Shown piece after piece: positions 14,100 to 57,843 of a DNA stretch of 64,000 bases. The stretch is from the NCBI GenBank assembly GCA_017429165.1, contig JAFRPL010000014.1, positions 130,113 through 194,112 on the forward strand, given 5' to 3'. Below the pieces are notes generated by a model. That model was not told where the DNA came from and made no database searches. It was given only the letters and a program-made list of their open reading frames with translations. Source of the stretch: Clostridia bacterium (GTDB taxonomy: Bacteria; Bacillota; Clostridia; Oscillospirales; CAG-382). The position numbers and the translations under genes are program-made. Numbering within the stretch: position 1 is the first letter of the stretch; every line of letters starts with the position of its first letter.

Positions 14100-14186
14100 T
14101 TTAGCTCGGCGCAGCCGTATTTAGCTCGCGTTAGCGAATTTAGCTCGCGTAAGCGAATTTAGCTCGCGTTAGCGAATTTAGCTGCG
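14100..14186. repeat. 19-nt tandem array (tttagctcgcgttagcgaa), giving TTAGC pentamers phased at 9-10 bp
   Basis: TTAGC occurs at 14101, 14121, 14131, 14140, (TAAGC at 14150), 14159, 14169 and 14178. Inverted GCTAA occurs at 14031 and 14083. Confidence 0.9.
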
Positions 14187-14298
14187 ACCGCCGCCGCGCT
14201 GTAACGATTTGTCGCTTTACTTTTGGCGCGATTTGTGGTTTAATGATAACGGTAAACGAGATCCCGGCCGGAAAACGTTACCGAAAGGAGGGCGGCGA

Positions 14299-41700: not shown

Positions 41701-44016
41701 CCCGGCGACACCGTCACGGTCACCGTGACCGCTCCGCAGCTTGCGGGCGGGAAAGCGCTTATAAGCATTGTGGACGAAGCGTGCTTCGCCTTGGGCGAAA
41801 ACGCGTACAGTCTGCTTAATTACCTCAAATCGAGCGGCTATTTCGCGTCACAGTCTTATATGATCCGTTCTTACAATGCTTACAATGAATATAGGTACCG
41901 CGGTTATATTCAGGGTTATCACACCGGCGGAAGGCTCACTTCGTTTTCCGATATCCCGCTTTCGCGCCTGATCGGCTCGAAACTCGGGGGCAATTCCGAT
42001 TATATATATATCGACGGCAAAATGTATAGGTATGAGTACATGGAAGCAGAAGCGGAAGCGCCCGGAGACGCCGTCAACACGGAAGGCGAAAAATCGTACT
42101 ATGTGCGCGAAAACTTCGCCGACAACCCCGTTTTTGCACAGCTCGAATTCGACGAAAACGGCACGGCGACGCTGGTATTCAAGGTACCGGACAACCTCAC
42201 GACCTGGCGCGTGACCGCGCTGGGCATAAAGAATGCGGAAAAATTCAGCGACATCCGCATTGCGCAGAGCACGGGCGATCCCGTGTGCACGCTGCCGTTC
42301 TTCGTAAAGACCGATATGTGTTCCACCTACGTCAAAGGCGACGACATTGCGCTTTCGGTCCGCTGCTTCGGTACAAAAGCGCAGGGACATGCAAATTATA
42401 CGGCGGTGATATGCGACGCTGAAGGCAGCGAGATAGCGCGCAAAGAGGTTTCCGGCGACACCAAGGCGTTCACCGGAGTCAATTTCGGCAAGCTGGACGC
42501 AGGCGATTACAGTCTCACCGTTTACGCCGACTGCGGCGAATACACCGACGCTTTGAAGAGCACGTTCAGAGTGGTGACTTCCACGCTCGCGGTAGACGCT
42601 GTGGCGACGGTCACCTTGGACGAACTCAAATCCCTTAAAACGCTCGCATACCCCGTGAACGTGGTCGTAAGCGCCGGCGGAAGCGATTCGTTCTATTCCG
42701 GGGTGCTCGGCAGTCTCTATTACTCATACGGCGAACGCGCCGACGCGCTGGCGGCGAAATATGCCGCGGCGGTCATAATGAAAAACGTCTACGGCGGCGA
42801 TTTCGGCATTTCGGATATCGAAAGCAAGTTCGAATCGTTCTGCGGGACGGCCGGCGTCAAGCTTTTGCCTTACGGCGAAGCGGACGTCGAATTGACCGCT
42901 CTCATTGCGGACGTCGCTCCGGAGCTTTTGGCAGGAAAACTCACTGCTGCCGATCTGTTTGCAAACAAGCTTAACCGTAACGTGTTCCAAAGCGACGTGG
43001 AGCTTTGCGCTTCGATATACGGACTCGCCGCGTGCGGCGAACCCGTGCTCGACGTGCTGTACACGGTATCGTCGCAGGCCGGCGACTACAGCGACGAAGC
43101 CAAGTTTTACCTTGCGTGCGGATTTGCCGCAGCGGGCGATTATACCGCCGCGGAAAGCATCTATTCGCAAATAGTCGGCAAACTTGCGGTCGGCGTTGAA
43201 AACGCGATGTACCTCAAAGGCGCCGACGAAGACGCAAAGATCAAGCTCACTTCCCTTGCGCTGGTCGTCGCTTCGCGCATCAGGCGTTCCGACGCGATCA
43301 GATTCGCGCGCTACGCGGTAAGTATCCCGAACACGCACGGCGAAGCCGCGCATCTGGGACTTGCGGCGTTTGCAAAGTATTATCTGCCCGCCGAAAAGCA
43401 GGAACTGCAGAATATAAGCTACACTCTCGCCGACGGCGTTAAGCACGAGTCCGCAATAGGGTTCGGCAAGCAGCTTTGCCTTACGCTTTACAAATCGGAT
43501 CTCGAATCGCTCGTCCTTGAAGGGTGCGAAAACGCCGCGATAACCGTGCGTTACAGCGCGAGCGCCGCCGAGGCCGCGCGCGATTACGGCAAAGGCAGAG
43601 TGAAAGTGCAGAAGACCGTAAGCGGCGACGTGGTGACGATAACCGTTTCGGGTACTTCCAACAGGTACTGGGAATACTTCTCGTTCGACGACGTCATCCC
43701 TTCGGGCGCCCGCCTGCTCTACACTTTCAACCACGGCGACTACGCCAGAGGCAGCAACGCGACCGCGTATATCTACAACCGCGCCGGTCAGCGGATGGAA
43801 GGCCACATTTCGGTATCGGCCCCCGAAAGCTACTTTAAAAACTACCGCAAAGACAACACGGAATTCTGCAAGCAATATTCGTTCTCAGTCACCGTGAGTT
43901 ACCGCATACGCAAGGCGGTCAGCGGCGAGTTCAAGGTGGAACCCGCGGTGGTCGGTTCCGAATACAGCGAAGTATTTGAATTTTCAACAGGCAGTACGAC
44001 CGTTGTTTACGATTGA
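38749..44016 (+). CDS. Giant (1755 aa) single-pass membrane protein with an alpha-2-macroglobulin-like ectodomain; it occupies the anti-sigma position
   Basis: ATGA overlap with the sigma gene. TM is AGLIAAVLAVVIAAAFVIPALF. A bacterial Ig-like domain is present (ILPGAGSTEVPVNTGIEVTF...YTVTVKEGL). The A2M hallmark VPDNLTTWRVTALG is followed by LPFFVKTDM..GDDIALSV. The C-terminal FDDVIPSGARLL completes the pattern. Confidence 0.8.
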   Translation: MKNEKFMRSVGEIGDDLLQEAAGYKAESKAKANVPAPRGKLFRRAGLIAAVLAVVIAAAFVIPALFRQPDHVKIEIPPDNGIILKGGAYSTDANANLPESLREIEVLANGSGEKLMATDSTLVVKTAAECDTETFVKYVSVTPELPMAVTKVSATEFHLKPAQTAFAPNTLYRVTVGDPQNPAASFAFQTVSELAIKNILPGAGSTEVPVNTGIEVTFTDSVKNADFSDYITLTPAVSGKFMLYPNGKTVAFIPKEPLEYDSVYTVTVKEGLESISGKPLNAGRTAVFRTEGPDEDTQFVSWITASANGSRKAMFTPGDPYSLGSFVEYTAEIYYNDVSRTFAELPAGQVALTATFYRAVSWDSVAEAVTQLLSSDFAADYDENALLDKYFEKVDEIEFEPKDGVFRYNCSYTPEKEGFYYTVITARKNGTVRTFRDVFQISNLRLGGTAIDGKAVVVVSYDNGARVAGATVKGLRFSENAFYESVNRPEMTAFEITCGSDGTAVLEYGAGNALAFIYTDGERSALALKSVPGFDDNDYYINTLYTDRSVYFTNDAINVWGTLKGLYGAEVPEELYVFTGFSSVGTPVTVSEDGFFSASLKIENVMRTYTYVRVEDANGIVLANTMISVTEEEKPVIKAEMSFEKPYYFYGDTAVATIRVTFYDGTPAEGYEVSARCYEFDGDYGKVTDENGCATFRIKTGSVNANSTNPWTVSAYAYISGEGVDTLRCAASFVYFHSDYVLAYEGRVIKLNELDRSKCPEYAAGKPVTTKPGNVGAGSLEYALIQVKYNVYTYTEYDMYLKRSVERTRSERIETCEEQGKLYFEDGRIELKKVDYDPEKYYYYYRLYFTDAHGRYEFTVPARDYDDSYYTRYYTYYDRAYTVVLDKDAYLPGDTVNARFIYGETNNCPEPVLVFTGTSYISHTSGSEGAELFTEERLPEMRVTALFFDEIRKSWRAAGSTASYDYGSAVDGEISVKTDKDVYKPGDTVTVTVTAPQLAGGKALISIVDEACFALGENAYSLLNYLKSSGYFASQSYMIRSYNAYNEYRYRGYIQGYHTGGRLTSFSDIPLSRLIGSKLGGNSDYIYIDGKMYRYEYMEAEAEAPGDAVNTEGEKSYYVRENFADNPVFAQLEFDENGTATLVFKVPDNLTTWRVTALGIKNAEKFSDIRIAQSTGDPVCTLPFFVKTDMCSTYVKGDDIALSVRCFGTKAQGHANYTAVICDAEGSEIARKEVSGDTKAFTGVNFGKLDAGDYSLTVYADCGEYTDALKSTFRVVTSTLAVDAVATVTLDELKSLKTLAYPVNVVVSAGGSDSFYSGVLGSLYYSYGERADALAAKYAAAVIMKNVYGGDFGISDIESKFESFCGTAGVKLLPYGEADVELTALIADVAPELLAGKLTAADLFANKLNRNVFQSDVELCASIYGLAACGEPVLDVLYTVSSQAGDYSDEAKFYLACGFAAAGDYTAAESIYSQIVGKLAVGVENAMYLKGADEDAKIKLTSLALVVASRIRRSDAIRFARYAVSIPNTHGEAAHLGLAAFAKYYLPAEKQELQNISYTLADGVKHESAIGFGKQLCLTLYKSDLESLVLEGCENAAITVRYSASAAEAARDYGKGRVKVQKTVSGDVVTITVSGTSNRYWEYFSFDDVIPSGARLLYTFNHGDYARGSNATAYIYNRAGQRMEGHISVSAPESYFKNYRKDNTEFCKQYSFSVTVSYRIRKAVSGEFKVEPAVVGSEYSEVFEFSTGSTTVVYD

Positions 44017-44031
44017 TATTCAGGCAAAACG

Positions 44032-44078
44032 AAACTGCGTCCGGGAGCGTTATACTCCCGGACGCAGTTTGTTTCTTT
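44032..44078. terminator. Bidirectional terminator
   Basis: 16-bp stem aaactgcgtccgggag / ctcccggacgcagttt, followed by a T-rich tail. Confidence 0.85.
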
Positions 44079-44083
44079 ATGAT

Positions 44084-44914
44084 TCAGAACGATTCCATAT
44101 CGCTTACGGCTTTTATTTTTTTCATCACCGTGCAGACGATTTTTTCAATAAGCGAACCGGCGGTGAAATCGGCGGGGACGCAATAGTTAACTCTTCCGGA
44201 TGAAAGCAGGTATTTGGCGGTGTTGTCGCCTTTCTTTTCGTTATACACCGCAATGGATTGTCCGCCGTACGCCTTTACCAGCCGCATGCACGGGACGTCG
44301 GTTATGCCGTCGCCGACGTAGATCATATTGCCGAACGGCACGCGGCGGGCGTTTTCGGGCGTGTATTTGTTGAGAAGAGCGGCGCTTTTGCTGTCGATAT
44401 CGAGCACGCCCTTGTTTATGCGGAACAAAAACTGAGTTTTGGCGGTGTAGTTGACCGCCACCTTTGGCCAGCGGATGGATCCGTTTTCGTCGTACATGAA
44501 TTCGCACGCGTAAATGCGCTTGAAATTGCCCGCGCGGGCGATGGAGGTGCCTTCGATTATCTCTTTTATTCCGGAAGAGACTATGTAATGCTCGACGTTC
44601 ACGCCCGTTTCCGCCGCCGCGGCGTTGATGCGCCCGAACCAGGATTCGACTCCTTCGAAATATTCTATTCCTCGCCCGAGTTCAAAGAATTTGTCGCGCG
44701 TTATGCGTATGTTCTTTTCGCCGCATTTCTGCACCATAAGGAACATATACGCAAGTATGCTGTCCATGTGCTGAGTGTCGGTCAGACGATCCACCTCGCC
44801 CCAGAACTCGTCGGGCGAAAGGCCCAGTTCGGGTATGAAACCGTAATCCTGCATATCGCGCGTGGAAAGCGTTTTGTCAAAATCGTACATCAAGGCAATG
44901 ACGGGTCCGCTCAT
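44084..44914 (-). CDS. HAD-superfamily hydrolase
   Basis: Motif I is YDFDKTLS (DxDxT). Motif IV is YVGDGITDVP. Start at MSGPVIAL. Confidence 0.75.
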   Translation of the reverse strand: MSGPVIALMYDFDKTLSTRDMQDYGFIPELGLSPDEFWGEVDRLTDTQHMDSILAYMFLMVQKCGEKNIRITRDKFFELGRGIEYFEGVESWFGRINAAAAETGVNVEHYIVSSGIKEIIEGTSIARAGNFKRIYACEFMYDENGSIRWPKVAVNYTAKTQFLFRINKGVLDIDSKSAALLNKYTPENARRVPFGNMIYVGDGITDVPCMRLVKAYGGQSIAVYNEKKGDNTAKYLLSSGRVNYCVPADFTAGSLIEKIVCTVMKKIKAVSDMESF

Positions 44915-45014
44915 AACGTTATACCTTTCTTTTTTAAAAAACCAGTTGTGAAACGCGTTTATTCTATTATACCAGAAACCGCGCAAATGTCAATAACGCG
45001 TGCGACGATAGATA

Positions 45015-45043
45015 TTGACAACCGCCGCGTTATCTGTTATAAT
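45015..45043 (+). promoter_or_regulatory. Consensus SigA promoter of the partner-switching operon
   Basis: TTGACA at 45015-45020, a 17-nt spacer, TATAAT at 45038-45043. Confidence 0.7.
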
Positions 45044-45126
45044 TTTCAGGTGATATAATGTGTTTTTGTGCGGTCCGAGCGCGCATCGAATAACGCCCGG
45101 GCGCGTTTTTTGAAAGGAGAACCCGA

Positions 45127-45732
45127 ATGGAATCAACGGTAATCGAAGTCACGAGCAAAGGCGGCGGAATAAGCGAGGCGCTTTCGCTGACCGAAAAACT
45201 GGGTATCGAAAGCGGTATCCGCAAAAAATCCGTGATACATCTGCGGCTGCTCGCCGAAGAGCTGTTCGGCATGCTCCGCAGCATAGCCGGCGACGTAAGC
45301 GCGAACTACTGGATAGAATACAACGGGCCGGATTTTGAACTGCATCTGAAATCGACGGTGGAAATCACCGACAAAATGCGCGACCAGTTCATTTCAGCTT
45401 CCAGCAGCGGCAAAAACGACGCGGCCCGCGGAGTGATGGGCAAGATAAAGGTGATGATAGCGAACTTTATGTTTTCCGCCAGAGAAGCCCTGCCCTACAC
45501 GCTTATCAACACCCCCGCCTCCTATCATATGGGGGCGGCCGCGGGCGAGACGGCGGCTATGTGGTCCATGTCGCTTTACAAGGACGAGATCAAAAAGACC
45601 GGCGGCAAAAAATCCGCCGAAGCATGGGACGAACTTGAAAAATCCATTGTCGCAAATATCGCAGACGACGTGAAAGTGTGTATTCTGGGCGACACTGTGG
45701 AGATAATCATAAACAAAACATTCTGGCACTGA
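45127..45732 (+). CDS. Hypothetical protein; first gene of the partner-switching operon
   Basis: AAAGGAG RBS. 201 aa and soluble. The N-terminal segment IHLRLLAEELFGMLRSIAG vaguely resembles the N-terminal helix of RsbW-like ATPases, but there is no N/G1/G2 box. Confidence 0.6.
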   Translation: MESTVIEVTSKGGGISEALSLTEKLGIESGIRKKSVIHLRLLAEELFGMLRSIAGDVSANYWIEYNGPDFELHLKSTVEITDKMRDQFISASSSGKNDAARGVMGKIKVMIANFMFSAREALPYTLINTPASYHMGAAAGETAAMWSMSLYKDEIKKTGGKKSAEAWDELEKSIVANIADDVKVCILGDTVEIIINKTFWH

Positions 45733-45759
45733 TACAAATAACGGAAAGAGGGTAAAACA

Positions 45760-46056
45760 ATGACTATCAACAAACAGAAAAACGAAAACGGGCTTTTGAT
45801 ATCGCTCGAAGGAAGACTGGACACCACCACTTCCCCCGCGCTCGAACAGGAGCTTAAAGCATCGCTCGACGGCGTGGATTCGCTGGTGCTTGATTTTGAA
45901 AAACTCGACTACATATCTTCCGCCGGACTTCGCGTGCTGCTTTCGGCTCAGAAAACGATGAACAAGCAGGGCGAAATGAAGATAAAGAACGTAAACGAAA
46001 CGATACTCGAAATATTCGAAGTCACAGGTTTCAACGACATCCTCACCATAGAATAA
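45760..46056 (+). CDS. STAS-domain anti-sigma-factor antagonist (SpoIIAA/RsbV-like)
   Basis: 98 aa. Contains LDFEKLDYISSAGLRVLL with the conserved phosphorylatable Ser context. Confidence 0.85.
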   Translation: MTINKQKNENGLLISLEGRLDTTTSPALEQELKASLDGVDSLVLDFEKLDYISSAGLRVLLSAQKTMNKQGEMKIKNVNETILEIFEVTGFNDILTIE

Positions 46057-46102
46057 ACTTGTCGCCGGCATTTTGCCGGATCTGACGAAAGGAGCCGCAT
46101 AA

Positions 46103-47740
46103 ATGCAGGGTGACAAGAGCAGCATCTGGAGCAGGTTTCGCTCCGGGATGACTTTCAACATAATAGGCATGATCGTGCTTTTGCTCATAGTATTCGGCAT
46201 AATCGCCGGCGCCGTGGGGCTTGTGAACTTTACCCAGGCGTTCGAAAACGAATACGCCACCACGACCTACCATATGGCGGATACCGCCACCACGCTGATA
46301 AACGGCAGCCATATAGCGGACTATCTGGAAGGCAAGCGCACCATAGAATATATGCAGAGCAAATCGTATCTGGAAGCGTACTGCAAGCGCATAGGCGTTT
46401 CGCTGGTCTACGTCATAATAGTGGATACGAGCGACTACGGCAGGTTCGTTTCGGTATTCAACCACGTCGACAACACCGTGGGCAATACCAGTTACGTCGA
46501 ATGGGAGCTTGGGCACAAGCGCGACACCACCAACGACGAATACCGCGCAAAATATAAAGCGATCTACGAACAGCAATCCGCGTACGAGACCGTCTACCGC
46601 AACAACCCTTCCGACGGCAGCCTTCCGCACATCACCACTATGGTGCCGGTCAAGGATTCCGAAGGTGAAGTGACGGGCATACTCTGCATACAGCGCCCGA
46701 TGAGCGAGCTTATGGGAGCGCGCAGGCCGTACGTGATAGCGGTCGCCTTGGCGACGGTGCTGCTCGCCGCTTTCGTGGCGGTGTTCTACACGTTCTTTAT
46801 GAGACGTCAGTTCGTCAATCCCATTTCGAAAGTCGCTTCGGAAGCGTCGCGTTTTGCGCGCGAAAACACCAAAGGCGAACCGCTCGGCAAAGTCAGCCGC
46901 TTTAAAGAGATATCCGACCTTTCCGAATCCATAGACACCATGGAATCCGACATGGTTAACTATATGCAAGCCATCACCGCTTCGGCCGCCGAAAAAGAGC
47001 GTATCGGCTTTGAGCTTTCGCTCGCCAACACCATTCAGGTGAATTCAATACCCAACGTATTCCCGGCGTTCCCCGAGCGGACCGATTTTGACATTTATGC
47101 TTCCATGACTCCGGCAAAACAGGTGGGCGGCGACTTTTACAATTTCTTCTTCGTGGACGACGATCACCTTGCGATATCCATAGGCGACGTTTCCGGCAAG
47201 GGCATTCCCGCCGCGCTGTTTATGATGGTAACCAACATACTCGTCAGCGACAGGACCCGTATGGGCGGGACGCCGGGCGAGATACTCACTTTTGTCAATC
47301 ATAATATATGCGCGCACAACAAAGCGGATATGTTCGTGACTCTGTGGCTCGGCGTACTGGAGCTTTCCACCGGGACCCTGATCGCCTCAAACGCCGGGCA
47401 CGAATATCCGGTGATAATGCAGCCGGGCGGAAAATACGAAATATTCAAAGACAAACACTGTCTCGCCGTGGGAGCGATGGACAGCATAAAATACAAAGAT
47501 TACACGCTCAAGCTCGAACGCGGCGCCCGTCTCTTCATTTACACCGACGGCGTTCCCGAAACGACGGATCAAGACAACCGGATGTTCGGAATGGAGCGTA
47601 TGGTCGAAACGCTCAACTCCGCAGCGGATGCAGATCCCGAAAACGTGATAACCGGCATGCGCCATGCGGTTGAGCTCTTTGCAAACGGCACCGAACAGTT
47701 CGACGATCTTACGATGCTGTGCATCGAACTCAAAAAGTGA
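46103..47740 (+). CDS. Membrane sensor PP2C (SpoIIE-family) phosphatase with an extracytoplasmic Cache-like domain and HAMP
   Basis: Two TM segments flank a ~180-aa ectodomain. A HAMP-like linker follows. PP2C motifs are GGDFYNFF, IGDVSGKGIPAALFM and YTDGVPE. Confidence 0.85.
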   Translation: MQGDKSSIWSRFRSGMTFNIIGMIVLLLIVFGIIAGAVGLVNFTQAFENEYATTTYHMADTATTLINGSHIADYLEGKRTIEYMQSKSYLEAYCKRIGVSLVYVIIVDTSDYGRFVSVFNHVDNTVGNTSYVEWELGHKRDTTNDEYRAKYKAIYEQQSAYETVYRNNPSDGSLPHITTMVPVKDSEGEVTGILCIQRPMSELMGARRPYVIAVALATVLLAAFVAVFYTFFMRRQFVNPISKVASEASRFARENTKGEPLGKVSRFKEISDLSESIDTMESDMVNYMQAITASAAEKERIGFELSLANTIQVNSIPNVFPAFPERTDFDIYASMTPAKQVGGDFYNFFFVDDDHLAISIGDVSGKGIPAALFMMVTNILVSDRTRMGGTPGEILTFVNHNICAHNKADMFVTLWLGVLELSTGTLIASNAGHEYPVIMQPGGKYEIFKDKHCLAVGAMDSIKYKDYTLKLERGARLFIYTDGVPETTDQDNRMFGMERMVETLNSAADADPENVITGMRHAVELFANGTEQFDDLTMLCIELKK

Positions 47741-47770
47741 TATATTTCCTTATTGAACACGAGGTCCTTT

Positions 47771-49372
47771 ATGGCAGACAACAATAAAAACACGGTCGTT
47801 TACAGGCTTTGCGGAAAGATCGATTCCGGCAACGCGCCGCAGATCGAACAGGAGATCTTCACCGCGCTTGCCGGCAGGGGCGACGTATTGCCCGTACTGG
47901 ATGCCGAAGCGCTCGAATATATTTCGAGCGCGGGGCTGCGGATAATCCTGCGGCTGAAAAAGTCATGCGGCGACGTAAAAATCACAAACGCGAATTCCGA
48001 TATATACGAAATACTGGAAATGACCGGTTTTACCGAGATAATGCAGGTCGAAAAAGCGTACCGCAAAGTGTCGGTCGAAGGCTGCGATGTCGTCGGCGAG
48101 GGTCAGAACGGCAAAGTCTACCGCGTGGACCGCGACAACGTGGTGAAGGTGTATAAAAACGCCGACGCGCTGGAAGACATTAAGCACGAACGCGAAATGG
48201 CAAAACTGGCGCTGATACTGGGCATCCCCACCGCGATTTCGTACGACGTGGTCAAAGTGGGCGAAAGCTACGGTTCGATGTTTGAGCTTCTGGACGCGAG
48301 ATCTTTTTCAAACATACTCGCAAAGGAACCCGAACGGATAGACGAATGCGTATACGAATACGTGAAGATATTAAAGAAACTCCATTCCACGCACGTGCCC
48401 GAAGGCAAACTCCCCCGCTTAAAGGAACGCGTGGTCAAGGCGGCTTCGTATACTAAGGATCAGCTTCCGGAGGGCCTGGGCGACAAGCTTATGCGGATGA
48501 TAGAGGCGATACCCGAGACCGATACCCTGATCCACGGCGACTGCCACACCAAGAATATAGTGATGACGGGCGAAGAAGTCATGCTTATAGACATGGACAC
48601 GCTTTCGGTTGGCCACCCGATATTTGAATTTATGCGAATGTACAATTCGTATATAGGGTATTCGGAATACGACCCACAAGTGCTGGAAGATTTTCAGGGC
48701 TACCCCGCCGAGACGGCGCGCGTTTTCTGGAAAAAAACGCTGTGCGCGTATTTCGGCACGGATGACGAAGATGTGATAAATTCCATAGAAGAAAAGATCC
48801 GCTGCGTTTCGTACGCGTATCTTATCGACTGGTCCCGCCGTCACAAAGCGGCGGAAACCGAGCGCGGCCGTCTTACGTGCGAGCTTTGGAAAAAGCGCAT
48901 TACGGAACTGATACCGCGTCTGGATTCGCTCGACTTTGAAGTGAACGAAGCGACGCGAGACGATCCGAACGAGCTTACGCTGGAAGCCGAAAAAGACAAT
49001 CTGACCCGCGTGCTTGAATTCTTGGACCGGCGGCTTGAAAGCTGCGATTTGCCGCCCAAGGCGCAGATGCAGTTAGACCTTGCGGTGGAAGAGATATTCA
49101 TAAACATAGCGAGCTATGCATATTCCCCCAACAAAGGAAAAGCGACCGTCCGCGTGGAAGTCACGGGCGACCCCGTGACCGTGACGATAACGTTCATAGA
49201 CCGCGGCGTTCCTTACGACCCGCTCAAAAAGACCGATCCCGACGTGACGCTTTCGGCGGACGACCGCGAAATAGGCGGGCTCGGGATATTCCTCGCCAAA
49301 AAGATAATGGACGATATATCTTACGAATACAAAAACGGACAGAATATATTGCGGCTCAAAAAAAAGATTTGA
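47771..49372 (+). CDS. Triple fusion: STAS domain, APH/protein-kinase-like phosphotransferase domain, and RsbW/SpoIIAB-like HATPase domain
   Basis: STAS part: LDAEALEYISSAGLRIIL. Kinase-like part: GEGQNGKVYRV..VKVYK, HGDCHTKNIVM, LIDMDT. HATPase part: N box EEIFINIASYAY, G1 DRGVPYDP, G2 GGLGIFLAKK. Confidence 0.85.
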   Translation: MADNNKNTVVYRLCGKIDSGNAPQIEQEIFTALAGRGDVLPVLDAEALEYISSAGLRIILRLKKSCGDVKITNANSDIYEILEMTGFTEIMQVEKAYRKVSVEGCDVVGEGQNGKVYRVDRDNVVKVYKNADALEDIKHEREMAKLALILGIPTAISYDVVKVGESYGSMFELLDARSFSNILAKEPERIDECVYEYVKILKKLHSTHVPEGKLPRLKERVVKAASYTKDQLPEGLGDKLMRMIEAIPETDTLIHGDCHTKNIVMTGEEVMLIDMDTLSVGHPIFEFMRMYNSYIGYSEYDPQVLEDFQGYPAETARVFWKKTLCAYFGTDDEDVINSIEEKIRCVSYAYLIDWSRRHKAAETERGRLTCELWKKRITELIPRLDSLDFEVNEATRDDPNELTLEAEKDNLTRVLEFLDRRLESCDLPPKAQMQLDLAVEEIFINIASYAYSPNKGKATVRVEVTGDPVTVTITFIDRGVPYDPLKKTDPDVTLSADDREIGGLGIFLAKKIMDDISYEYKNGQNILRLKKKI

Positions 49373-49398
49373 ATCAAAAAAAGGAGCGTGAGAGTTCC

Positions 49399-50262
49399 GT
49401 GGAAAAGCGCTTGCGCAATATAGACCTGCATATGCACACGACGGTCTCCGACGGGACCGACACGCCCGAAATGCTGATTGGCGCGGTGAAAGCCGCCGGG
49501 ATAGAGGTTTTTTCCGCCACCGATCACGACGCGGTGAAGACCGGGCTCATTATCAGGTCGCTCCTCGAACCCGGCGACCCGGTATTCATTACGGGCGCCG
49601 AGTTTTCGTGCAAGGACGAGGAAGGCAAATATCACATACTCGGCTACGGGTTCGATCCGTCGGGCGCGCCGATGGCCGGACTCGTGAGGAAAGGCCACGC
49701 GCTGAGAATGAAAAAAGTCGCGGCGCGGATCGGCTTTATAAAGAGCGAATTCGGGTTCGAATTCCGTAAAGAAGATATCGACTCGCTGTTTGCGCTGGAC
49801 AACCCGGGAAAGCCGCACATAGCCAACCTTATGGTGAAATACGGCTACGCGACCGACAAGGATACGGCGATGCGCGAATACCTCAACCGCATGCGGTTCA
49901 GAAGCGAATACGTGCGCCCCGAGGAAGCGATATCCGCCGTCACCGCCGCGGGCGGGATCCCCGTGCTGGCGCATCCGTTTTACGGCAGCGGCGACGAACT
50001 CATATTGGGCGACGAGATGGAAGACCGTCTGCGCCGGCTCATGGAAATGGGGCTGCGCGGCGTGGAGGCGTTTTATTCCGGTTTTTCGGCGAAACTGCGC
50101 GAAAACATGCTTGCGCTTGCGCGGAAATACCGCCTTTACGTGACCGCCGGCAGCGACTATCATGGCTCAAACAAGCTCGTAACGCTCGGCGATACCGGCC
50201 TGCGCGACGCCGGAGAAATGCCCGAAGGGCTGATACGTTTTTTGAAAGACGCGGTAAAATGA
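49399..50262 (+). CDS. PHP-domain phosphoesterase
   Basis: Motif IDLHMHTTVSDGT...FSATDHD. AAAGGAG lies upstream of the GTG at 49399. The ORF is open from 49369. Confidence 0.75.
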   Translation: MEKRLRNIDLHMHTTVSDGTDTPEMLIGAVKAAGIEVFSATDHDAVKTGLIIRSLLEPGDPVFITGAEFSCKDEEGKYHILGYGFDPSGAPMAGLVRKGHALRMKKVAARIGFIKSEFGFEFRKEDIDSLFALDNPGKPHIANLMVKYGYATDKDTAMREYLNRMRFRSEYVRPEEAISAVTAAGGIPVLAHPFYGSGDELILGDEMEDRLRRLMEMGLRGVEAFYSGFSAKLRENMLALARKYRLYVTAGSDYHGSNKLVTLGDTGLRDAGEMPEGLIRFLKDAVK

Positions 50263-51473
50263 GAATAGAGTTTGATACGTTAGATAAAAAACCGCATTTA
50301 TATCTGCTGATACTGCCCGTCGTCATTGCGGCGGCCGCGGTTTTTCTGCTTGTGCGTTCGACGCCGGACGGTAATCCCGCCACGGTTTGCGCTGTGACTG
50401 TGTCGCTGTGCGCGGTCATTATTTTCGCGCTCGTGCGGGCGCTGATACGCCAGATACGGTATAATCCATACTCGTACAACACCATATACTACGCGGGCTT
50501 CGCGCTGTTTACGACGTTCGTGCTTTTCAATCACTTTTACCTGTTCTATATGCTCGCCAAATACTCGGGGCAGATCACTGCCGCGGACGTGCTGAGCATA
50601 TGGCTCAATTCGGCAAAGAACTATATGCTCATGACTTCGCCGTTTTTGCTCTTCTTTTCGACGGCGCTGTGCGTTGCGAATATCTCGCTGATACGGCACG
50701 AGGGCAAAAAGATTTCCAACCTTTTCGGCATACTGCTCTCATTCGTCATAGTGGCGGGCGGCGTTTTTATTTACCGGTACGATTATTACGCCACGGGCAG
50801 CGAATTCGAAGTGATGATGCACGACATTTTCATCAACACCGTCGCCGCGCTGTATCTGTATCTTGAATGCATGATAGCGGGCGTCATATTCGCCGGAGTG
50901 CTGGCGGCGCGCCACGAACCGAAAAAAGACAAGGATTTTATCATAATACTTGGGTGCGGACTCAGAAAAGACGGCACGCCCACGCCGCTTCTGCGCGGCA
51001 GGATCGACCGCGCGCTTGAATTTGCGCGCAGGCAGGAAGAGCAGACCGGCAAAGCTCCGTGTTTTGTGACTTCCGGCGGCAAAGGCGCGGACGAAGCGGT
51101 TTCCGAAAGCGCCGCGATGGCAGATTATCTGCTTGAAAACGGCGTGCCGGAAGAGCGTATAATCAGAGAGGACCGTTCGACCAGCACGTTTGAGAATATG
51201 AAGTTTTCAAAAGAGCTTATAGAAAGCTCCGGCGGCGGAAAGATCGCCTTTTCGACCACCAATTACCACGTTTTCCGCAGCGGGTTGTACGCGCGGCGCG
51301 TCAAAATGCGCGCAGTGGGTATGGGCGCAAAGACCAAGTGGTATTTCTGGCCGAACGCCGCCGTGCGCGAATTCGCGGGGCTGTTGAGCGCCCATCGCCT
51401 TAAACAGGCGATAATAATCGGCGCTATGATAGCCGTGTACGTGGCGCTGACGCTGCTCGCATATAATCCTTAA
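50259..51473 (+). CDS. Polytopic membrane protein with a C-terminal DUF218 (YdcF/SanA-like) domain
   Basis: ATGA overlap with the PHP gene. Five or more TM segments are followed by DFIIILGCGLRKDG...VTSGGKGADEAVSESAAMADYL...STSTFEN. Confidence 0.75.
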   Translation: MRIEFDTLDKKPHLYLLILPVVIAAAAVFLLVRSTPDGNPATVCAVTVSLCAVIIFALVRALIRQIRYNPYSYNTIYYAGFALFTTFVLFNHFYLFYMLAKYSGQITAADVLSIWLNSAKNYMLMTSPFLLFFSTALCVANISLIRHEGKKISNLFGILLSFVIVAGGVFIYRYDYYATGSEFEVMMHDIFINTVAALYLYLECMIAGVIFAGVLAARHEPKKDKDFIIILGCGLRKDGTPTPLLRGRIDRALEFARRQEEQTGKAPCFVTSGGKGADEAVSESAAMADYLLENGVPEERIIREDRSTSTFENMKFSKELIESSGGGKIAFSTTNYHVFRSGLYARRVKMRAVGMGAKTKWYFWPNAAVREFAGLLSAHRLKQAIIIGAMIAVYVALTLLAYNP

Positions 51474-51499
51474 CGCTTTTTGATTCCGGAGTGAGCTAT

Positions 51500-52159
51500 A
51501 TGAACGAAGTAAGCAGAAACGACATAAGGTACGATCCTTCCGGGTTCGTGCCGCTGGGGGATTTCGTCCCGCAGGCGATACAGGAGATACGTTATTACTC
51601 GACATACAATTTCATAGGCGACCGCATAGACGGCTACGAGCAGCCGTGCGCTCTGCTCACGGCGGAAGCGGCGCGCGCGCTGAAGAGCGCCGCCGGCGAG
51701 CTTGCGGTGCAGGGCTACCGCATAAAGGTCTTCGACGCGTACCGCCCCGCCTGCGCGGTCCGGCATTTTGTGCTATGGGGCATAGAAGACACCGACGTGC
51801 GTATGAAACCTTTCTTTTACCCAGGCCTTGAAAAACAGGAGCTGTTTGCAAAAGGATATATCGCAAAGCTTTCTTCGCACAGCCGCGGCAGCGCCGTGGA
51901 TCTTACGCTTTTGGATATGGCGACGGGCAAAGAGCTCGATATGGGCAGTCCGTTCGACTTTTTCGGCGAGATCTCACACCCTTCGTACACCGGAATAACG
52001 CCCGAACAGTACGAAAACCGAATGATACTGCAACGCGCGATGCTGCGCGCCGGCTTTGAGATACTCGACTGCGAATGGTGGCATTTCAAGCTGAAAAACG
52101 AGCCGTATCCCGACACCTATTTCGAATTCCCCGTCTCGGCCAATTATCTGCGCCGCTGA
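51500..52159 (+). CDS. M15 D-alanyl-D-alanine dipeptidase (VanX/DdpX-like)
   Basis: Motifs FDAYRP, SSHSRGSAVDLTL and EWWHF, which are the zinc and catalytic motifs of VanX-type dipeptidases. Confidence 0.85.
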   Translation: MNEVSRNDIRYDPSGFVPLGDFVPQAIQEIRYYSTYNFIGDRIDGYEQPCALLTAEAARALKSAAGELAVQGYRIKVFDAYRPACAVRHFVLWGIEDTDVRMKPFFYPGLEKQELFAKGYIAKLSSHSRGSAVDLTLLDMATGKELDMGSPFDFFGEISHPSYTGITPEQYENRMILQRAMLRAGFEILDCEWWHFKLKNEPYPDTYFEFPVSANYLRR

Positions 52160-52178
52160 CAGTTCAAGGAGGCGCGAT

Positions 52179-52982
52179 ATGGAGATAAGAACGGGAAAAG
52201 TGCGTACCGGGTCATTTTGCATGGATCACTTCTCTTTCGGAAGCGGCGGCAAACCGCTCGTCATCCTGCCAGGGCTGAGCGTTCAGCCGATAACGCCCGC
52301 GTCTCAGGCGGTCGCTCTCGCGTATTCCGTTTTTGCAAAAGATTTTACGGTATATCTGTTCGATCGTGTGAGCGATCCGCCCGCCGGATACACCGTGCGC
52401 GATATGGCGCGCGACACCGAAAACGCGATATCCTCGCTGGGACTTGACGAAATATACCTTTTCGGCGCGTCTCAGGGCGGGATGATTGCTCTGGAAATGG
52501 CCGCGGAACACAAAATCAACGTAAAAAAGCTCGCCGTTGCTTCCTCGGCGCTGCATACCGGCGACGCCGCGGCGGCGATAACGGAAAGCTGGATAAATAA
52601 AGCCCTTTCCGGCGACGCCGAAGGACTTTATTCGGAGTTCGGCAGAACGGTGTACACCGAAGACGTGTTTTTGCGTTACGTGGATACGCTTTCCGCCGCC
52701 GCAAAGACCGTAACGCGCGACGAGCTCGAACGGTTCGCGATCTTCGCTTCGGCGGTAAAGGGATATTTCTCGTCGGCGAACAGGAACAACGTCCGCTGCC
52801 CGCTGTTTGCAGTCGGTTCGGACGACGACGCGATCTTCGGCGCGGACAGCGTGAATGCATTTGACGCGGAATTCGGCGAAAACGCGTATTTTTCGTCGTT
52901 CCTATACCGCGGTTTCGGACACGCGGTCTACGACACCGCGCCGGATTTCAAAGAACGCCTTTACGGTTTTTTCATTTCATGA
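52179..52982 (+). CDS. Alpha/beta hydrolase
   Basis: Nucleophile elbow GASQGG. A late G-F-GH-AV histidine motif is present. Confidence 0.75.
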   Translation: MEIRTGKVRTGSFCMDHFSFGSGGKPLVILPGLSVQPITPASQAVALAYSVFAKDFTVYLFDRVSDPPAGYTVRDMARDTENAISSLGLDEIYLFGASQGGMIALEMAAEHKINVKKLAVASSALHTGDAAAAITESWINKALSGDAEGLYSEFGRTVYTEDVFLRYVDTLSAAAKTVTRDELERFAIFASAVKGYFSSANRNNVRCPLFAVGSDDDAIFGADSVNAFDAEFGENAYFSSFLYRGFGHAVYDTAPDFKERLYGFFIS

Positions 52983-52996
52983 CACAGTAAAAAAAG

Positions 52997-53028
52997 CGCC
53001 GCTTGCAAAAGCAAGCGGCGTTTATATT
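52997..53028. terminator. Bidirectional terminator
   Basis: Stem cgccgcttgc / gcaagcggcg, loop aaaa, with A/T runs on both sides. Confidence 0.85.
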
Positions 53029-53033
53029 ATTAC

Positions 53034-54788
53034 TCAGAGGACGAGCGTAAGGTTGTTCAAGCCGAGAGAATTGACGTAATTTGCGCTTTTGACCATCTTC
53101 ATGACCATTCTAATGCCTATATGCGCGGTCGGCTCGTCGACGCGGTGGAGTTCCATATACTTTACGGGATCGAAATCCGCGCAGTTGTCGCGTATACGTA
53201 TGACGCGCCTGCCGCCTTTATAAACCAGGCGGATATCTATGCTGTGCTCCTTGCCGTCGCCTGCAAACCCGTGGCGCACGATATTGACCGCCATTTCTTC
53301 TATGCAAAGCGCTAAAAGAGAGCTGTTTCGCCGCGTTTCGCCGTAGCGGATACAGAATTCCTGCGCTTTTTCCGAAGCTTCAACGACACGCTCTATGGAA
53401 TCGGCGGAGGTTTCAAAGCAGTCGTTTTGAGCGGCGCCGAATTCCGCGGGCAGGAACGCGAACGTTTCGGCGGAAAACGAGACGCGGCGGCTTTTTATGA
53501 ATACGATGGCCGCCATTATGATAAGCGTAAGCGTTTCGCCGCACAGGAACGAAAGCCAAACGCCCGTGACTCCCCAAAAGCGTGAAAGCAGAAACGCAAA
53601 CGCCGCGACAAGGGCGAAGTTCTGCATAAGCGAAATCGCCTGCGTGAGCCACGCCTTGTTCACGCCCTGATAGTAGTTCTTGAACGTGGTGTTCAGCGCG
53701 CCGGGCAGCAGCGAAAGCGAAAACAGCCGCACGCCCAGGACCGCCATATCCGCCGCGGCGGGCGCTTCGGTAAGGAACAGCGCCACGAGCGCAGGCGCGG
53801 AAAAGAACACCGCGACAGTCAGCAGCGAAACGAGCAGCGCCGAATAGAAAGACATGGTCTTGACGAGCGAGCACAGTTCGGATCTGTCCTCGTCGCTGTA
53901 AAAGATGGAAGAAAGCATAAGCGCGACCGAAGCGACGCCCGAACCCACGCAGTAGCAGATATTGCCCACGGTGGAAATGACCGAATACGCAGCCACGGCG
54001 TTGTTTTTGCCCACGTCCAGCAGTATGGAGTTCATAACGAACACCATAAGGACAAGACTTACCTGATTCACGACCGTAGGTACGCCGTATTTGAGCAGCG
54101 TGCCGCAGGTCTTAGCCTTGACATAAGCAAAATTGAAACGGAACACGCATTTCTTTTTGAAGAAATACACAAGCCCTATGAAAAACGCTATGTAATAGCT
54201 CACGCTCGAAGCGACGCCCATGCCGAACGTGCCCTGCTTTACCACGAAGACGTTGAGGATATCGAGCGCCACGTCCGCCGCGGTCATAGCCGCCACGGCT
54301 GTGATGAGGCGCGTCCTGTTGCCGGTGATCTGCATATACGGCACCATTATCTGTGCAAATATGAACGCCGGCGCGCCGATTATGAATCCTCGCAGGTAGT
54401 CGCGCGTCAAAAAGAAAACGTCGTTGCCGGGTACGGGATTGCCCGCGCCGAGCAGGGTGCAGATAGGCGAGGAAAAAAGTATGACCAGAACCGAACCGGC
54501 GACCGAAATGACGAACGCCAGAAACACCGATACCGAAAAGCACGCGTTGGTGCCTTTCATGTCGCCGCCGCCCATCGTCTTGCCGCACATCACCTGTATG
54601 CCGGCCGAAAGCGTCGTCCCGACCGCCGCGAAAACGAGCAGCACGGGAGTGGCGAGCCCGTAAGCGGTCATTGAATCGACGCCCAGAAAGCGGCCTATCA
54701 TGATGCTGTCCACGAGCATACACAGCATGACGGTCATCGACGATATTATCTGTGCGGAAAGCATTTGCCTGAAAACTCTTTTTATCAT
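53034..54788 (-). CDS. MATE-family efflux transporter fused to a C-terminal cytoplasmic RsbW-like HATPase domain
   Basis: A 12-TM MATE-like body (MIKRVFRQMLSAQIISSMT...). The ~130-aa tail has the N box CIEEMAVNIVRHGF and the G1-like motif IRDNCADFDP. The G2 box is degenerate (AHIGIRMVMKM). Confidence 0.8.
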   Translation of the reverse strand: MIKRVFRQMLSAQIISSMTVMLCMLVDSIMIGRFLGVDSMTAYGLATPVLLVFAAVGTTLSAGIQVMCGKTMGGGDMKGTNACFSVSVFLAFVISVAGSVLVILFSSPICTLLGAGNPVPGNDVFFLTRDYLRGFIIGAPAFIFAQIMVPYMQITGNRTRLITAVAAMTAADVALDILNVFVVKQGTFGMGVASSVSYYIAFFIGLVYFFKKKCVFRFNFAYVKAKTCGTLLKYGVPTVVNQVSLVLMVFVMNSILLDVGKNNAVAAYSVISTVGNICYCVGSGVASVALMLSSIFYSDEDRSELCSLVKTMSFYSALLVSLLTVAVFFSAPALVALFLTEAPAAADMAVLGVRLFSLSLLPGALNTTFKNYYQGVNKAWLTQAISLMQNFALVAAFAFLLSRFWGVTGVWLSFLCGETLTLIIMAAIVFIKSRRVSFSAETFAFLPAEFGAAQNDCFETSADSIERVVEASEKAQEFCIRYGETRRNSSLLALCIEEMAVNIVRHGFAGDGKEHSIDIRLVYKGGRRVIRIRDNCADFDPVKYMELHRVDEPTAHIGIRMVMKMVKSANYVNSLGLNNLTLVL

Positions 54789-54997
54789 ATATAAGGCTCC
54801 GTTTTTTGATGAATATATTGTACCATATAACTGCGGTTTTTTCAAGTGATAAATTTCGCACGTTCGACAGTTTTCGCTTGCTGTGAAAAACGGCAAGAAG
54901 GCAAAAAACCACTTGTAGAATCATTTGACGTATGCTATAATGATACGGGCGAAAACCGTTTTGCCGAATGATCTCCTAAAAGGACGGTATATGCGAT

Positions 54998-56122
54998 ATG
55001 AAAAAGATCATCACACTCATCCTTGCGCTGCTGCTCTGTTCCGCCGCGCTGTTTGCCTGCGGCAAGGCTGGCGCGTCCGGGCTTCGCGGCTCGGCGGTCA
55101 CGCACGAGACCAAGTTCGGCGGCGTATATTTTGACAAGACCATTGAAGAATTCAACGCTTTGGGATTTGAATACGGCGACAGCGTGAACATAACGTTTTC
55201 CAACGGAAAATCGCTCGCAGACATCCCCTATTACAACGGTTATTACGTCGATATAGGCTATCCGCTGCTGGTGGCGTATCCCGGGTACCCGTATATAGAG
55301 GCCATGGTCAACTACGGCGACGATCTGTTCGTGACTCTGGAGCTCGACGAAACCTGCACCGCGGATATCGAGCTGTGCGAGCGCGGCAAGTATGCGGGCG
55401 TGCAGAAAGCGCGCGACATACAGTATTCCGACGAGCAGGGCGATCAGAGCGACGAAGTGTTCGCCAATTTCCGCGCCGTCAACATGGGAGAGTTGAAAAA
55501 AGACGTGCTCTACCGTTCGGCTTCGCCCTGCAACGACGAGCACAACCGCGCCGCCGTCACCGACAGGCTCGCCGCCGGAGCGAAAATAGGATTTATGCTC
55601 AACCTTTCGGATAACGAAAGCGATATACTCGGCTTCATCGCCGCGGACACGTTCGATTCGCCTTATTTCCTTTCGCTTTTCAACAGCGGCAACGTGGCGC
55701 CGCTGGGGCTGAGCGCCAACTTCAAAAGTGCGTCTTTCGGCGAAAAGCTGGCGCGCGGTCTCGAAGCGGTCGCGCAGAGCGAAGGCCCGGTGCTGATCCA
55801 TTGCGTGGAAGGTAAAGACCGCACCGGCTACGTGCTGATGCTGCTCGAAGCGCTGTGCGGCGCTTCTTACGGCGAGATAGTCGACGACTATATGCTCACC
55901 TACGATAACTACTACGGCATAAACAAGACGAGCGACCGCGAACGGTACGATATTATCAAAGAAAAGAATCTTGACGTAATGATATCCTATATGACCGGCA
56001 CGCCGGCGTCGGAAGGGTTCGAAAACGCCGACCTGGCAAAGAGCGCCCGCGAGCTGCTCGTAAGAATTGGTATGACCGAAGAATCGGTGAACAGACTGTA
56101 TTCAAAACTGACCGGAGAATAG
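54998..56122 (+). CDS. Lipoprotein with a CX5R tyrosine/dual-specificity phosphatase domain (Y_phosphatase3-like)
   Basis: Lipobox ALFAC|GK. Active site is IHCVEGKDRTGYV. An N-terminal ~130-aa beta-rich domain has unclear identity. Confidence 0.75.
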   Translation: MKKIITLILALLLCSAALFACGKAGASGLRGSAVTHETKFGGVYFDKTIEEFNALGFEYGDSVNITFSNGKSLADIPYYNGYYVDIGYPLLVAYPGYPYIEAMVNYGDDLFVTLELDETCTADIELCERGKYAGVQKARDIQYSDEQGDQSDEVFANFRAVNMGELKKDVLYRSASPCNDEHNRAAVTDRLAAGAKIGFMLNLSDNESDILGFIAADTFDSPYFLSLFNSGNVAPLGLSANFKSASFGEKLARGLEAVAQSEGPVLIHCVEGKDRTGYVLMLLEALCGASYGEIVDDYMLTYDNYYGINKTSDRERYDIIKEKNLDVMISYMTGTPASEGFENADLAKSARELLVRIGMTEESVNRLYSKLTGE

Positions 56123-56139
56123 ACCTGTAAATAAACATA

Positions 56140-56170
56140 CCCGTCCGCGAAAAACGCGGACGGGTTTTTA
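56140..56170. terminator. Bidirectional terminator
   Basis: Stem cccgtccgcg / cgcggacggg, loop aaaaa, then TTTTTA. Confidence 0.85.
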
Positions 56171-56183
56171 CATATATTCTGTT

Positions 56184-57761: not shown

Positions 57762-57843
57762 GATTATCACCTTTTCCCTTTTTTCCTATATCATTATACC
57801 GCATTATACCGCGCCGGGCGCGCTTTGTCAACACGCCTTTTCG

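Follow-up and report, generated by a model that had tools for sequence, protein, structure and literature searches.

Partner switching is the textbook form of sigma-factor control, and few of the cases that act independently of a sigma factor are understood. An operon of a rumen Clostridia bacterium (assembly GCA_017429165.1, contig JAFRPL010000014.1) raises the question of what such a switch controls when every one of its usual parts is present and the sigma factor is not. The window analysed here is a 64,000-nucleotide stretch of this contig, and positions given without a locus name are numbered from its first letter. Eight genes lie on the + strand between 45127 and 52982; their products include a free STAS protein, a membrane phosphatase of the PP2C (SpoIIE) family and a fusion protein (FUS) in which a STAS domain, an APH-like kinase and an RsbW-like ATPase domain of the GHKL type follow one another. 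The original prediction for this DNA concluded that the output must be something other than a sigma factor and looked for it in the cell envelope. The first part of that conclusion stands, as the absence of a sigma factor is conserved; the focus on the envelope was too narrow. The likelier output, which had been overlooked, is the kinase within FUS, because its pairing with a phosphohydrolase of the PHP or HD_4 type is conserved. From sequence, structural models and gene context we infer a partner switch that works without a sigma factor and acts on two outputs, the fused kinase and a MATE exporter encoded nearby, and we give this reading about an even chance of being right.

Switch genes and the missing sigma factor

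The free STAS protein (98 amino acids (aa), 45760–46056, + strand) consists of a single domain of the anti-sigma-antagonist type, matching Pfam STAS with an E value of 2e-17 and TIGR00377 with 75.8 bits, above the cutoff. The motif YISSAGLR is present both here and in the STAS domain of FUS; in the free protein its residues S53, S54, G56 and R58 are 100% conserved among 90 homologues, and Ser54 is the predicted phosphorylation site. The phosphatase (545 aa, 46103–47740, + strand) matches positions 1–191 of the 192 in the SpoIIE profile (E 2e-45), and the motifs GDVSGKG, YTDG and DDLT are visible in its sequence. It has a transmembrane (TM) segment at residues 12–47, an extracytoplasmic domain of ~160 aa, a second TM segment at 207–234, a linker and then the PP2C domain. 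Its earlier description as a Cache/HAMP-PP2C phosphatase holds for the catalytic part; the Cache assignment has weak support, the matches of the extracytoplasmic part to dCache_1 and PAS being below threshold (E 0.002–0.06), and no HAMP domain is matched by Pfam. Further STAS, GHKL or PP2C paralogues were not found elsewhere in the 64-kb window.

There is no sigma factor within the operon. To see how this compares with related loci, open reading frames (ORFs) were called in 80 species-representative loci carrying FUS and searched with the window proteins; 31 of the 80 have at least 5 kb on both sides and are referred to as well flanked. An iterated sigma-70 hidden Markov model, built from three sigma-like ORFs in the window, two in the loci and a SigF sequence, found members of the family within ±10 kb in only four of the 80 loci and in none of them adjacent to the switch genes. 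The original observation of a complete STAS/GHKL/PP2C set lacking a sigma factor is therefore upheld, and the lack is a conserved property of these loci.

The window has an extracytoplasmic function (ECF) sigma gene of its own, 6.4 kb upstream of the operon (187 aa, 38189–38752, + strand). We rejected it as a conserved partner, as it has no homologue in the 80 related loci and is set apart from the operon by a terminator at 44032–44070 and a divergent HAD gene. Its end shares 4 nt with the beginning of a gene for a 1,755-aa A2M protein (N-terminal TM segment, Big_5, MG2 and A2M domains), the two genes together occupying 38189–44016. They may represent a pair built around a giant membrane-anchored anti-sigma or surface protein, and the pair likewise has no homologue in the FUS loci. 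Two further ORFs of the sigma-70 family that the sigma-70 model matches in the window, at 3385–4107 (− strand, E 3e-51) and 14182–14748 (+ strand, E 2.5e-24), are far from the operon.

A comparison of synteny had been proposed as a check on the locus, and it finds the switch genes kept together across the related loci. A free STAS gene is found near FUS in 56 of the 80 loci (27 of the 31 that are well flanked), a PHP gene in 51 (22 of 31) and a PP2C gene in 49 (19 of 31). The neighbours are nearly all on the FUS strand, mostly with PP2C before and PHP after FUS. Gene order differs among the loci, with arrangements such as STAS-MATE-FUS-PHP and FUS-u201-STAS-PHP (u201 being the 201-aa protein considered below), so that the linkage survives rearrangement.

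The fused kinase and its hydrolase partner

FUS (533 aa, 47771–49372, + strand) is, as had been proposed, a fusion of STAS, kinase and ATPase, and all three Pfam domains are matched: STAS at ~47771–48055, the APH-like kinase at ~48068–48955 (PF01636, E 1e-18) and the RsbW-like GHKL domain at ~48983–49363 (HATPase_c_2, E 1e-22). More than 6,400 homologues were found among the scored candidates, and the 120 listed all share the three domains at 60–100% identity; when a single genome of each GTDB species was scanned for the pattern, at least 574 relatives were confirmed. These come mostly from metagenome-assembled genomes (MAGs) of rumen and gut Clostridia, with others in Lachnospiraceae, Solobacterium, Anaerovoracaceae and one Spirochaetales MAG. 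Residues invariant in 22 homologues are S52/S53 of the STAS domain; the glycine-rich loop GEGxNGKVYR, K126, HGDxHxKN (255–262) and IDMD (273–276) of the kinase; and E440/E441/N445 of the N-box, D477/G479 of G1 and G502–G505 of G2 in the GHKL domain. Because these catalytic residues are invariant, all three domains look functional. In two Solobacterium MAGs (L035, 10289–11926; L039, 10298–11947), FUS is divided into a STAS-kinase of ~400 aa and, 4 nt further on, a GHKL protein of ~143 aa, which is either a natural split between domains or a shared frameshift.

In an AlphaFold2 model of FUS (pLDDT 77.7), the GHKL domain is structurally nearest to SpoIIAB (TMt 0.77), and the nearest Foldseek neighbours of the modelled kinase are the 5-methylthioribose kinase MtnK (E 3e-8), APH(2'')/APH(3'), Cph001 and the choline kinase LicA. 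By sequence the kinase has no relative in the PDB except for a weak match to CotI/YtaA. It scores 113.7 bits against TIGR02172, where the cutoff is 228.2, and on this evidence it belongs to a clade that is related to the TIGR02172 kinases and distinct from them.

With the kinase domain as the only query, an exhaustive HMMER search gave 2,608 clusters at 50% identity. Among the best 150 of these, a STAS domain is present in 121, and 111 are STAS-kinases of ~390 aa that have no GHKL domain; the FUS type, STAS-kinase-GHKL, makes up only two, and a permuted GHKL-STAS-kinase, an HD_4-kinase and a STAS-kinase-PHP fusion occur once each. Other STAS-kinases are joined to HD-CE (P0399), to a Na/H exchanger (P0428) or to a nucleotidyltransferase head of the PolyA_pol type (P0405). 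The STAS-kinase-PHP, HD-CE, GHKL-STAS-kinase and Na/H-exchanger forms are clusters of a single member, and the HD_4-kinase fusion (P0439) is found on three contigs; the neighbourhoods of P0439 and P0405 hold no further switch genes. The clade is thus characteristically fused to STAS, and the serine at the S54 position is conserved in 121 of 122 members of the wider STAS-kinase family. Several kinase domains of the clade match TCAD9, a 'ternary conflict system' domain, below threshold.

The gene following FUS (49399–50262, + strand, or from a TTG start at 49369) encodes a PHP phosphoesterase that probably belongs to the TrpH/YciV/Cv1693 clade. Its Pfam PHP match is weak, at 26.3 bits against a cutoff of 26.4. 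The nearest structure in the PDB is 3E0F, a Bifidobacterium phosphoesterase (E 6e-28), followed by the pAp 3'-phosphatase Cv1693 (2YB1, E 2e-17) and RNase AM (7UG9, E 1.5e-12); its NCBIfam scores, 109.8 bits against nucleoside-bisphosphate phosphatase and 97.2 bits against a second model, are far below the respective cutoffs of 400 and 375. By the counts given above, with the gene downstream of FUS and on the same strand, PHP is the most conserved enzyme partner of FUS, a point that the original prediction had missed, together with what takes its place when it is absent. In four loci a SpoT/Mesh1-type gene of the HD_4 family, ~190 aa and with HDxxED intact, lies directly downstream of FUS (L008, 7270–7854; L063, 11604–12167; L068, 11619–12176; L073, 11515–12135), and PHP is absent from all four.

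The same family appears beside kinases of the shorter type. In three of four contexts, a 190-aa SpoT/Mesh1-type HD_4 gene with its HDxxED motif intact abuts the STAS-kinase gene (at L169, 872–1444, and L172, 1538–2107, among others); in the fourth, a fusion of five TM segments, SpoIIE and GHKL abuts the kinase gene. HD_4 in the PHP slot looks like the non-orthologous displacement of an 'eraser'. The strongest evidence that kinase and hydrolase act on the same molecule is that HD_4 takes the position of PHP and that fusions of the kinase with either of them exist. HD_4 enzymes strip the 3'-pyrophosphate from (p)ppGpp, and human MESH1 strips the 2'-phosphate from NADPH. A phosphate on the ribose of a nucleotide is a plausible common denominator of the PHP and HD_4 chemistry, and it fits the similarity of the kinase to MtnK and its weak match to CcrZ.

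Further GHKL-like domains and the surrounding genes

The first gene of the operon encodes u201 (201 aa, 45127–45732, + strand), which had been described as unknown. This is correct to the extent that it matches no family in Pfam, NCBIfam or PADLOC and that every one of its 1,243 homologues is labelled 'hypothetical'. An AlphaFold2 model built with 32 homologues as input (pLDDT 79, pTM 0.76) points to a GHKL-like (Bergerat) fold: in a Foldseek search of the PDB the best 14 matches are all anti-sigma kinases (UsfX, SpoIIAB and RsbW; prob 0.97–1.0), with histidine-kinase ATP-binding domains next, although these matches are of borderline significance (E 1.6e-3 to 4e-2, TMt 0.48–0.75). Alignment of u201 with GHKL domains by hhalign gives a weak and partial match covering the N-box helices only (E 0.017), so the assignment depends on the fold search. 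In the corresponding segment of u201, LRLLAEELFGML, the Asn of the N-box is missing, and the G1 motif (DxGxG) is absent too. We conclude from the model that u201 is probably a degenerate RsbW-like GHKL protein, a pseudokinase and a predicted STAS-binding partner, and would count it as a fourth component of the switch. A STAS gene is adjacent to u201 in all 25 loci that carry it, taking together the loci selected for FUS and those selected for the MATE protein described below; u201 is found near FUS in 12 of 80 loci (7 of the 31 well flanked).

The MATE gene (53034–54788, − strand) lies 3.7 kb from FUS and is convergent with the operon on a terminator at 52994–53023; a promoter-like site of its own is found at 54845–54817. 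The protein matches PF01554 in two stretches (E 8.5e-20), has multiple TM segments and scores 120.6 bits against TIGR00797, for which the cutoff is 147.4. Its C-terminal tail (~53043–53396) is an RsbW-like GHKL domain that matches HATPase_c_2; it keeps EEMxxNIVxHGF, and the glycines of G1 are replaced by D-[ND]-C-x-x-F-D-P. A search that scored the top 8,000 candidates returned at least 773 homologues, and most of the 120 best listed have both MatE and HATPase_c_2.

The fusion had been put forward as a candidate target of the switch, and gene context makes this credible. In 16 of the 80 loci (9 of the 31 well flanked), MATE-GHKL and FUS share an operon and a strand. In a set anchored on MATE-GHKL (80 metagenome loci plus L086, L087 and L088; n = 83), a STAS gene is nearby in 30, and in 9 of the 22 with at least 5 kb of flank. 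An operon of the form MATE-u201-(u201)-STAS-PP2C, without FUS, occurs at least 11 times in this set; L087 has the order STAS-PP2C-MATE-GHKL, L086 has a PP2C+GHKL fusion followed by MATE, and L088 has no switch genes. Because MATE-GHKL recurs in STAS/PP2C operons without FUS, its tail is a candidate partner of the free STAS protein.

Two further observations concern these loci. A SpoIIE PP2C and HATPase_c_2 are joined in one protein in L086 (7031–8995) and L173 (294–2087), the latter with a 5TM-5TMR_LYT sensor in addition, and these fusions, an alternative packaging of the switch enzymes, lie directly upstream of a MATE-GHKL or a STAS-kinase gene. In L088 (1328–8870), MATE-GHKL is downstream of genes for a choline-kinase/APH protein, an NTP_transferase+choline-kinase protein (LicC/LicA-like), EamA and CotH, and a DUF218 gene lies 4 kb beyond it; this context hints at a role in the phosphocholine decoration of the envelope.

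The remaining genes of the operon are those that had directed attention to the envelope and peptidoglycan. The DUF218 protein (50259–51473, + strand, E 1e-28) is polytopic, with ~6 N-terminal TM segments and one at the C-terminus, and the first 4 nt of its gene coincide with the end of the PHP gene, stop codon included. The following gene (51500–52159, + strand) encodes a VanX-type D-Ala-D-Ala dipeptidase (M15D), cytoplasmic, with a match to Peptidase_M15 (E 1e-38). Compared with PDB entry 1R44 (E 9e-48), it keeps the equivalents of the Zn ligands and catalytic residues of VanX (R71, H116, D123, E181 and H184) and the motifs DAYRP, SSHSRGSAVDLTL and EWWHF; its NCBIfam score is 191 bits against an equivalog cutoff of 320, and no D-Ala-D-Lac ligase or dehydrogenase of the vanH/vanA type is among its neighbours in the window. 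An α/β-hydrolase (52179–52982, + strand; Abhydrolase_1, E 3e-13) is the last gene of the unit and is weakly associated with the system. DUF218 is found near FUS in 17 of 80 loci (11 of 31), VanX in 13 (5 of 31) and the α/β-hydrolase in 4 (2 of 31), the well-flanked counts being far above chance. Beyond the MATE gene, a lipoprotein of the Y_phosphatase3 family (Pfam; 54998–56122, + strand; lipoprotein signal LLCSAALFACG) is a loosely associated accessory; strong homologues of it lie beside the FUS cluster in L037, L045, L051 and L074 and in four of the MATE-anchored loci. These four genes are recurrent accessory cargo and suggest an envelope-related setting; an output directed at the envelope, as once proposed, agrees with their recurrence, but they are accessory and PHP is the more conserved.

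The predicted promoter at 45015–45043 is confirmed as a sigma-70-type site matching the consensus at 12 of 12 positions (TTGACA, 17-nt spacer, TATAAT) with an extended −10 TG. The gene order through PHP, DUF218 and the dipeptidase is likewise as described, according to the ORF and domain calls, the gaps between the eight genes ranging from −4 to 46 nt. The end of the unit has to be moved: the tightly packed genes continue past 51473, through the α/β-hydrolase, to the terminator at 52994–53023, so the transcription unit probably spans 45043–53023 and extends 1.5 kb further than first thought. This terminator is bidirectional, with a stem of 13 pairs, 8 of them GC, and a run of T on either strand, and is common to the operon and the convergent MATE gene. 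It and the terminator at 44032–44070 are the only strong ones, and none within the unit is comparable.

On the upstream side, a second promoter with a 12/12 match and an extended −10 TG (44993–44966, − strand) serves the divergent gene, which encodes an HAD-IB phosphatase (44084–44986, − strand); two perfect promoters thus stand back to back in 44966–45043, with their −35 boxes ~22 nt apart. We rejected this HAD gene as a member of the system, as it lacks a homologue in all 80 related loci. A riboswitch or attenuator in the leader (45050–45130) was also rejected (fold z-score 0.36; no Rfam match at E ≤ 0.1 across 43900–56300), as was an anti-phage defence system (no PADLOC match for 10 proteins). 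Further downstream, a 525-aa secreted protein (56184–57770, − strand) ends in two dockerin-like repeats (DCDGDVDSDDAIYLLRHVLF...), which suggests that the organism builds complexes of the cellulosome type.

Mechanism, alternatives and relation to known systems

The pathway that we consider would run as follows. The membrane PP2C would sense an extracellular signal through its ~160-aa domain and dephosphorylate the free STAS protein at Ser54, and probably FUS at the equivalent serine. The GHKL domain of FUS, the N, G1 and G2 boxes of which are intact, would re-phosphorylate these serines. Unphosphorylated STAS would bind GHKL-type domains, namely the FUS tail, the MATE tail and u201, the last of which would compete with the others or serve as a scaffold; the state of phosphorylation would set which of these partners are occupied. 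One output would be the APH-like kinase, which stands between STAS and GHKL and may be gated by their association and release, as in a clamp operating in cis or trans. The kinase would phosphorylate a small molecule, and PHP or HD_4 would reverse this. As substrate we think first of a nucleotide or nucleoside, modified at a hydroxyl of its ribose; the 2'- or 3'-phosphorylated product would be the one that PHP or HD_4 removes. As the other output, the MATE exporter would have its activity set by way of the GHKL tail. In the STAS-APH-kinases, the MATE-GHKL proteins and u201 alike, the RsbW-like domain appears to act as a STAS-docking adaptor that would place enzymes and a transporter under the control of phosphorylation.

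The reading can be taken further, to the proposal that the STAS-fused APH-like kinases (~2,600 clusters) are a new class of signal-gated nucleotide kinases and that the operon couples an extracellular signal to an unrecognised second messenger as well as to the MATE exporter. The kinase would then phosphorylate a ribose 2'- or 3'-OH, or the 3' end of an RNA or tRNA, to give a pNp- or alarmone-like product that PHP or HD_4 erases. We regard this extension, including its details, as tentative and on the whole doubtful.

Several points weigh against the mechanism. A nucleotide is suggested by the families to which PHP and HD_4 are assigned, and both proteins score far below the equivalog cutoffs. 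The N-lobe of the FUS kinase is poorly modelled (pLDDT 41–68), and the ELK and APH folds include protein kinases, so that 'small-molecule kinase' is a predicted label. The serine of YISSAGLR is equally invariant in STAS-kinases that have no GHKL or PP2C nearby, and the kinase may itself act on STAS. Binding of STAS is assumed both for the MATE tail, which lacks the G1 glycines, and for u201, which lacks the N-box Asn. The STAS-kinase-PHP fusion (P0362) is on one metagenomic contig and could be due to a lost stop codon. Finally, the loci are mostly from related rumen Clostridia, and their synteny may be partly inherited rather than selected.

The operon could also be a canonical switch, in which the FUS GHKL domain or u201 sequesters a SigF/SigB-like or ECF sigma factor encoded elsewhere, with the kinase, PHP and downstream genes as passengers. 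Sequence and structure alike place the FUS GHKL domain nearest to SpoIIAB and RsbW, the nearest matches of u201 are anti-sigma factors, and the window has its ECF gene upstream; in sporulating Clostridia, SigF is encoded at another place in the genome, and a sigma factor at such a distance would count against the mechanism above. Set against this are the rarity of sigma-70-family ORFs in the neighbourhoods and their absence next to the switch genes, the isolation of the ECF gene behind a terminator and a divergent gene together with its lack of homologues in related loci, the covalent attachment of the GHKL domains to a kinase, a transporter or a PP2C, and a kinase/PHP linkage that is far too conserved for passengers. 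We consider this explanation quite improbable. A different possibility starts from the near-constant fusion of the kinase to STAS and from the 121 of 122 conserved serines, found even where GHKL and PP2C are not nearby and the genes are HD_4, STAS-kinase and STAS. The APH-like domain would be a protein kinase that modifies the STAS serine, both in its own polypeptide and in the free protein, with PHP and HD_4 as the protein phosphatases of a second cycle and the target of the free STAS protein as the output, in the manner of SypA. The motifs GEGxNGKVYR and HGDxHxKN do resemble those of the protein-kinase-like ELKs SrkA/YihE and CotS (weak NCBIfam matches), and some PHP enzymes, such as CpsB, are protein phosphatases. 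Yet the structural neighbours of the kinase are small-molecule kinases, the PHP protein probably falls in the clade of nucleotide phosphatases and RNase AM and not in that of CpsB, HD_4 enzymes are nucleotide hydrolases, and a second cycle would be redundant, as GHKL and PP2C already give a full one for STAS. We hold it to be unlikely.

The accessory genes allow yet another view of the locus, as a gated island for envelope stress or antibiotic response. Its sensor would detect a wall-active compound or fragment, and an APH/AmgK-like kinase would act on an antibiotic or wall sugar, alongside efflux by MATE, the dipeptidase, a SanA/ElyC-like DUF218 protein and the esterase. It is in favour of this that APH, MATE, VanX-type, DUF218 and α/β-hydrolase genes stand together here and turn up again in related loci, that APH(2'')/APH(3'), Cph001 and LicA are among the structural neighbours of the kinase, that the catalytic residues of VanX are intact and that MATE-GHKL stands beside choline-kinase/LicC-like and DUF218 genes in L088. 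The envelope genes are, however, present in only 16–35% of the well-flanked loci, whereas PHP or HD_4 is the conserved partner; a dedicated reversing hydrolase makes little sense for the inactivation of a drug, no ligase of the vanH/vanA type is nearby, and both VanX and MATE score below their NCBIfam equivalog or subfamily cutoffs. This, too, seems to us unlikely to be the correct account. 

Among the closest models are the RsbU-RsbV-RsbW-SigB and SpoIIE-SpoIIAA-SpoIIAB-SigF modules of Bacillus, which share the STAS protein with a conserved serine, a GHKL kinase with intact boxes and a PP2C input. The present system differs in that no sigma factor is found in the operon or in 76 of the 80 neighbourhoods, that the GHKL kinase forms the C-terminus of a protein with three domains and that two extra GHKL-like domains are present, of which one is attached to a transporter and the other is degenerate. 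Fused switches are known, as in Rv1364c of Mycobacterium tuberculosis (PAS-RsbU-RsbW-RsbV) and HsbR/HsbA of Pseudomonas. These, together with SypE/SypA of Vibrio fischeri and CrsR of Shewanella, resemble our locus in having fused switch domains and outputs that are not necessarily sigma factors, but they have no APH-like kinase between STAS and GHKL, and here the PP2C is a separate membrane sensor and there is no receiver domain. The structure of Rv1364c (PDB 3KE6) appears in the fold search with u201 as a non-significant match (prob 0.06).

Chlamydial RsbU carries an extracytoplasmic sensor domain. In the RsbU-RsbV1/V2-RsbW system of Chlamydia trachomatis, a membrane RsbU-type phosphatase is combined with more than one STAS protein and no dedicated sigma factor is in the operon (PMC8256260); its proteins are stand-alone, their proposed action is on the main sigma factor and, unlike here, there are no kinase, PHP or MATE fusions. 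Switches that are sigma-independent or of unknown sigma factor are well established and include BtrUVW of Bordetella, SypE/SypA of Vibrio, Rsb of Chlamydia and Rba of Rhodobacter (PMC8256260). The HenR/All4160/Alr3423 system of Anabaena, which sets a STAS-glycosyltransferase under the control of a kinase and of a phosphatase of the SpoIIE type (PMC13555669; bioRxiv 10.64898/2026.04.08.717354), has STAS fused to an enzyme and is proposed to control the activity of that enzyme, rather than a sigma factor, by STAS phosphorylation. Here the enzyme is an APH-like kinase and not a glycosyltransferase, the GHKL domain is in the same polypeptide, the free STAS protein, the pseudokinase and the transporter tail are extra partners, and the phylum is Bacillota. 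With the APH, choline kinase, MtnK and CcrZ enzymes, the FUS kinase shares the fold, HGDxxxxN, DxD and the β3 Lys; it differs from them in falling below the TIGR02172 cutoff and in being characteristically preceded by STAS.

In open-access papers and preprints we found no description of STAS-APH kinases, MATE-GHKL transporters or the u201 family, and nothing relevant on STAS with HATPase_c_2 or with a small alarmone hydrolase. Sigma-independent switching and the fusion of STAS to an enzyme are already known. The locus leads to three large families abundant in rumen and gut Clostridia, the STAS-APH-kinases with or without GHKL, the MATE-GHKL proteins and u201, and recognising them would improve labels such as 'ATP-binding protein', 'anti-sigma factor antagonist' and 'hypothetical protein'. 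The conserved pairing of kinase and phosphohydrolase provides a testable hypothesis of a small-molecule, possibly nucleotide, output. Even if the guess at the substrate is wrong, the locus offers an entry point to post-translational signalling in organisms of ruminant digestion.

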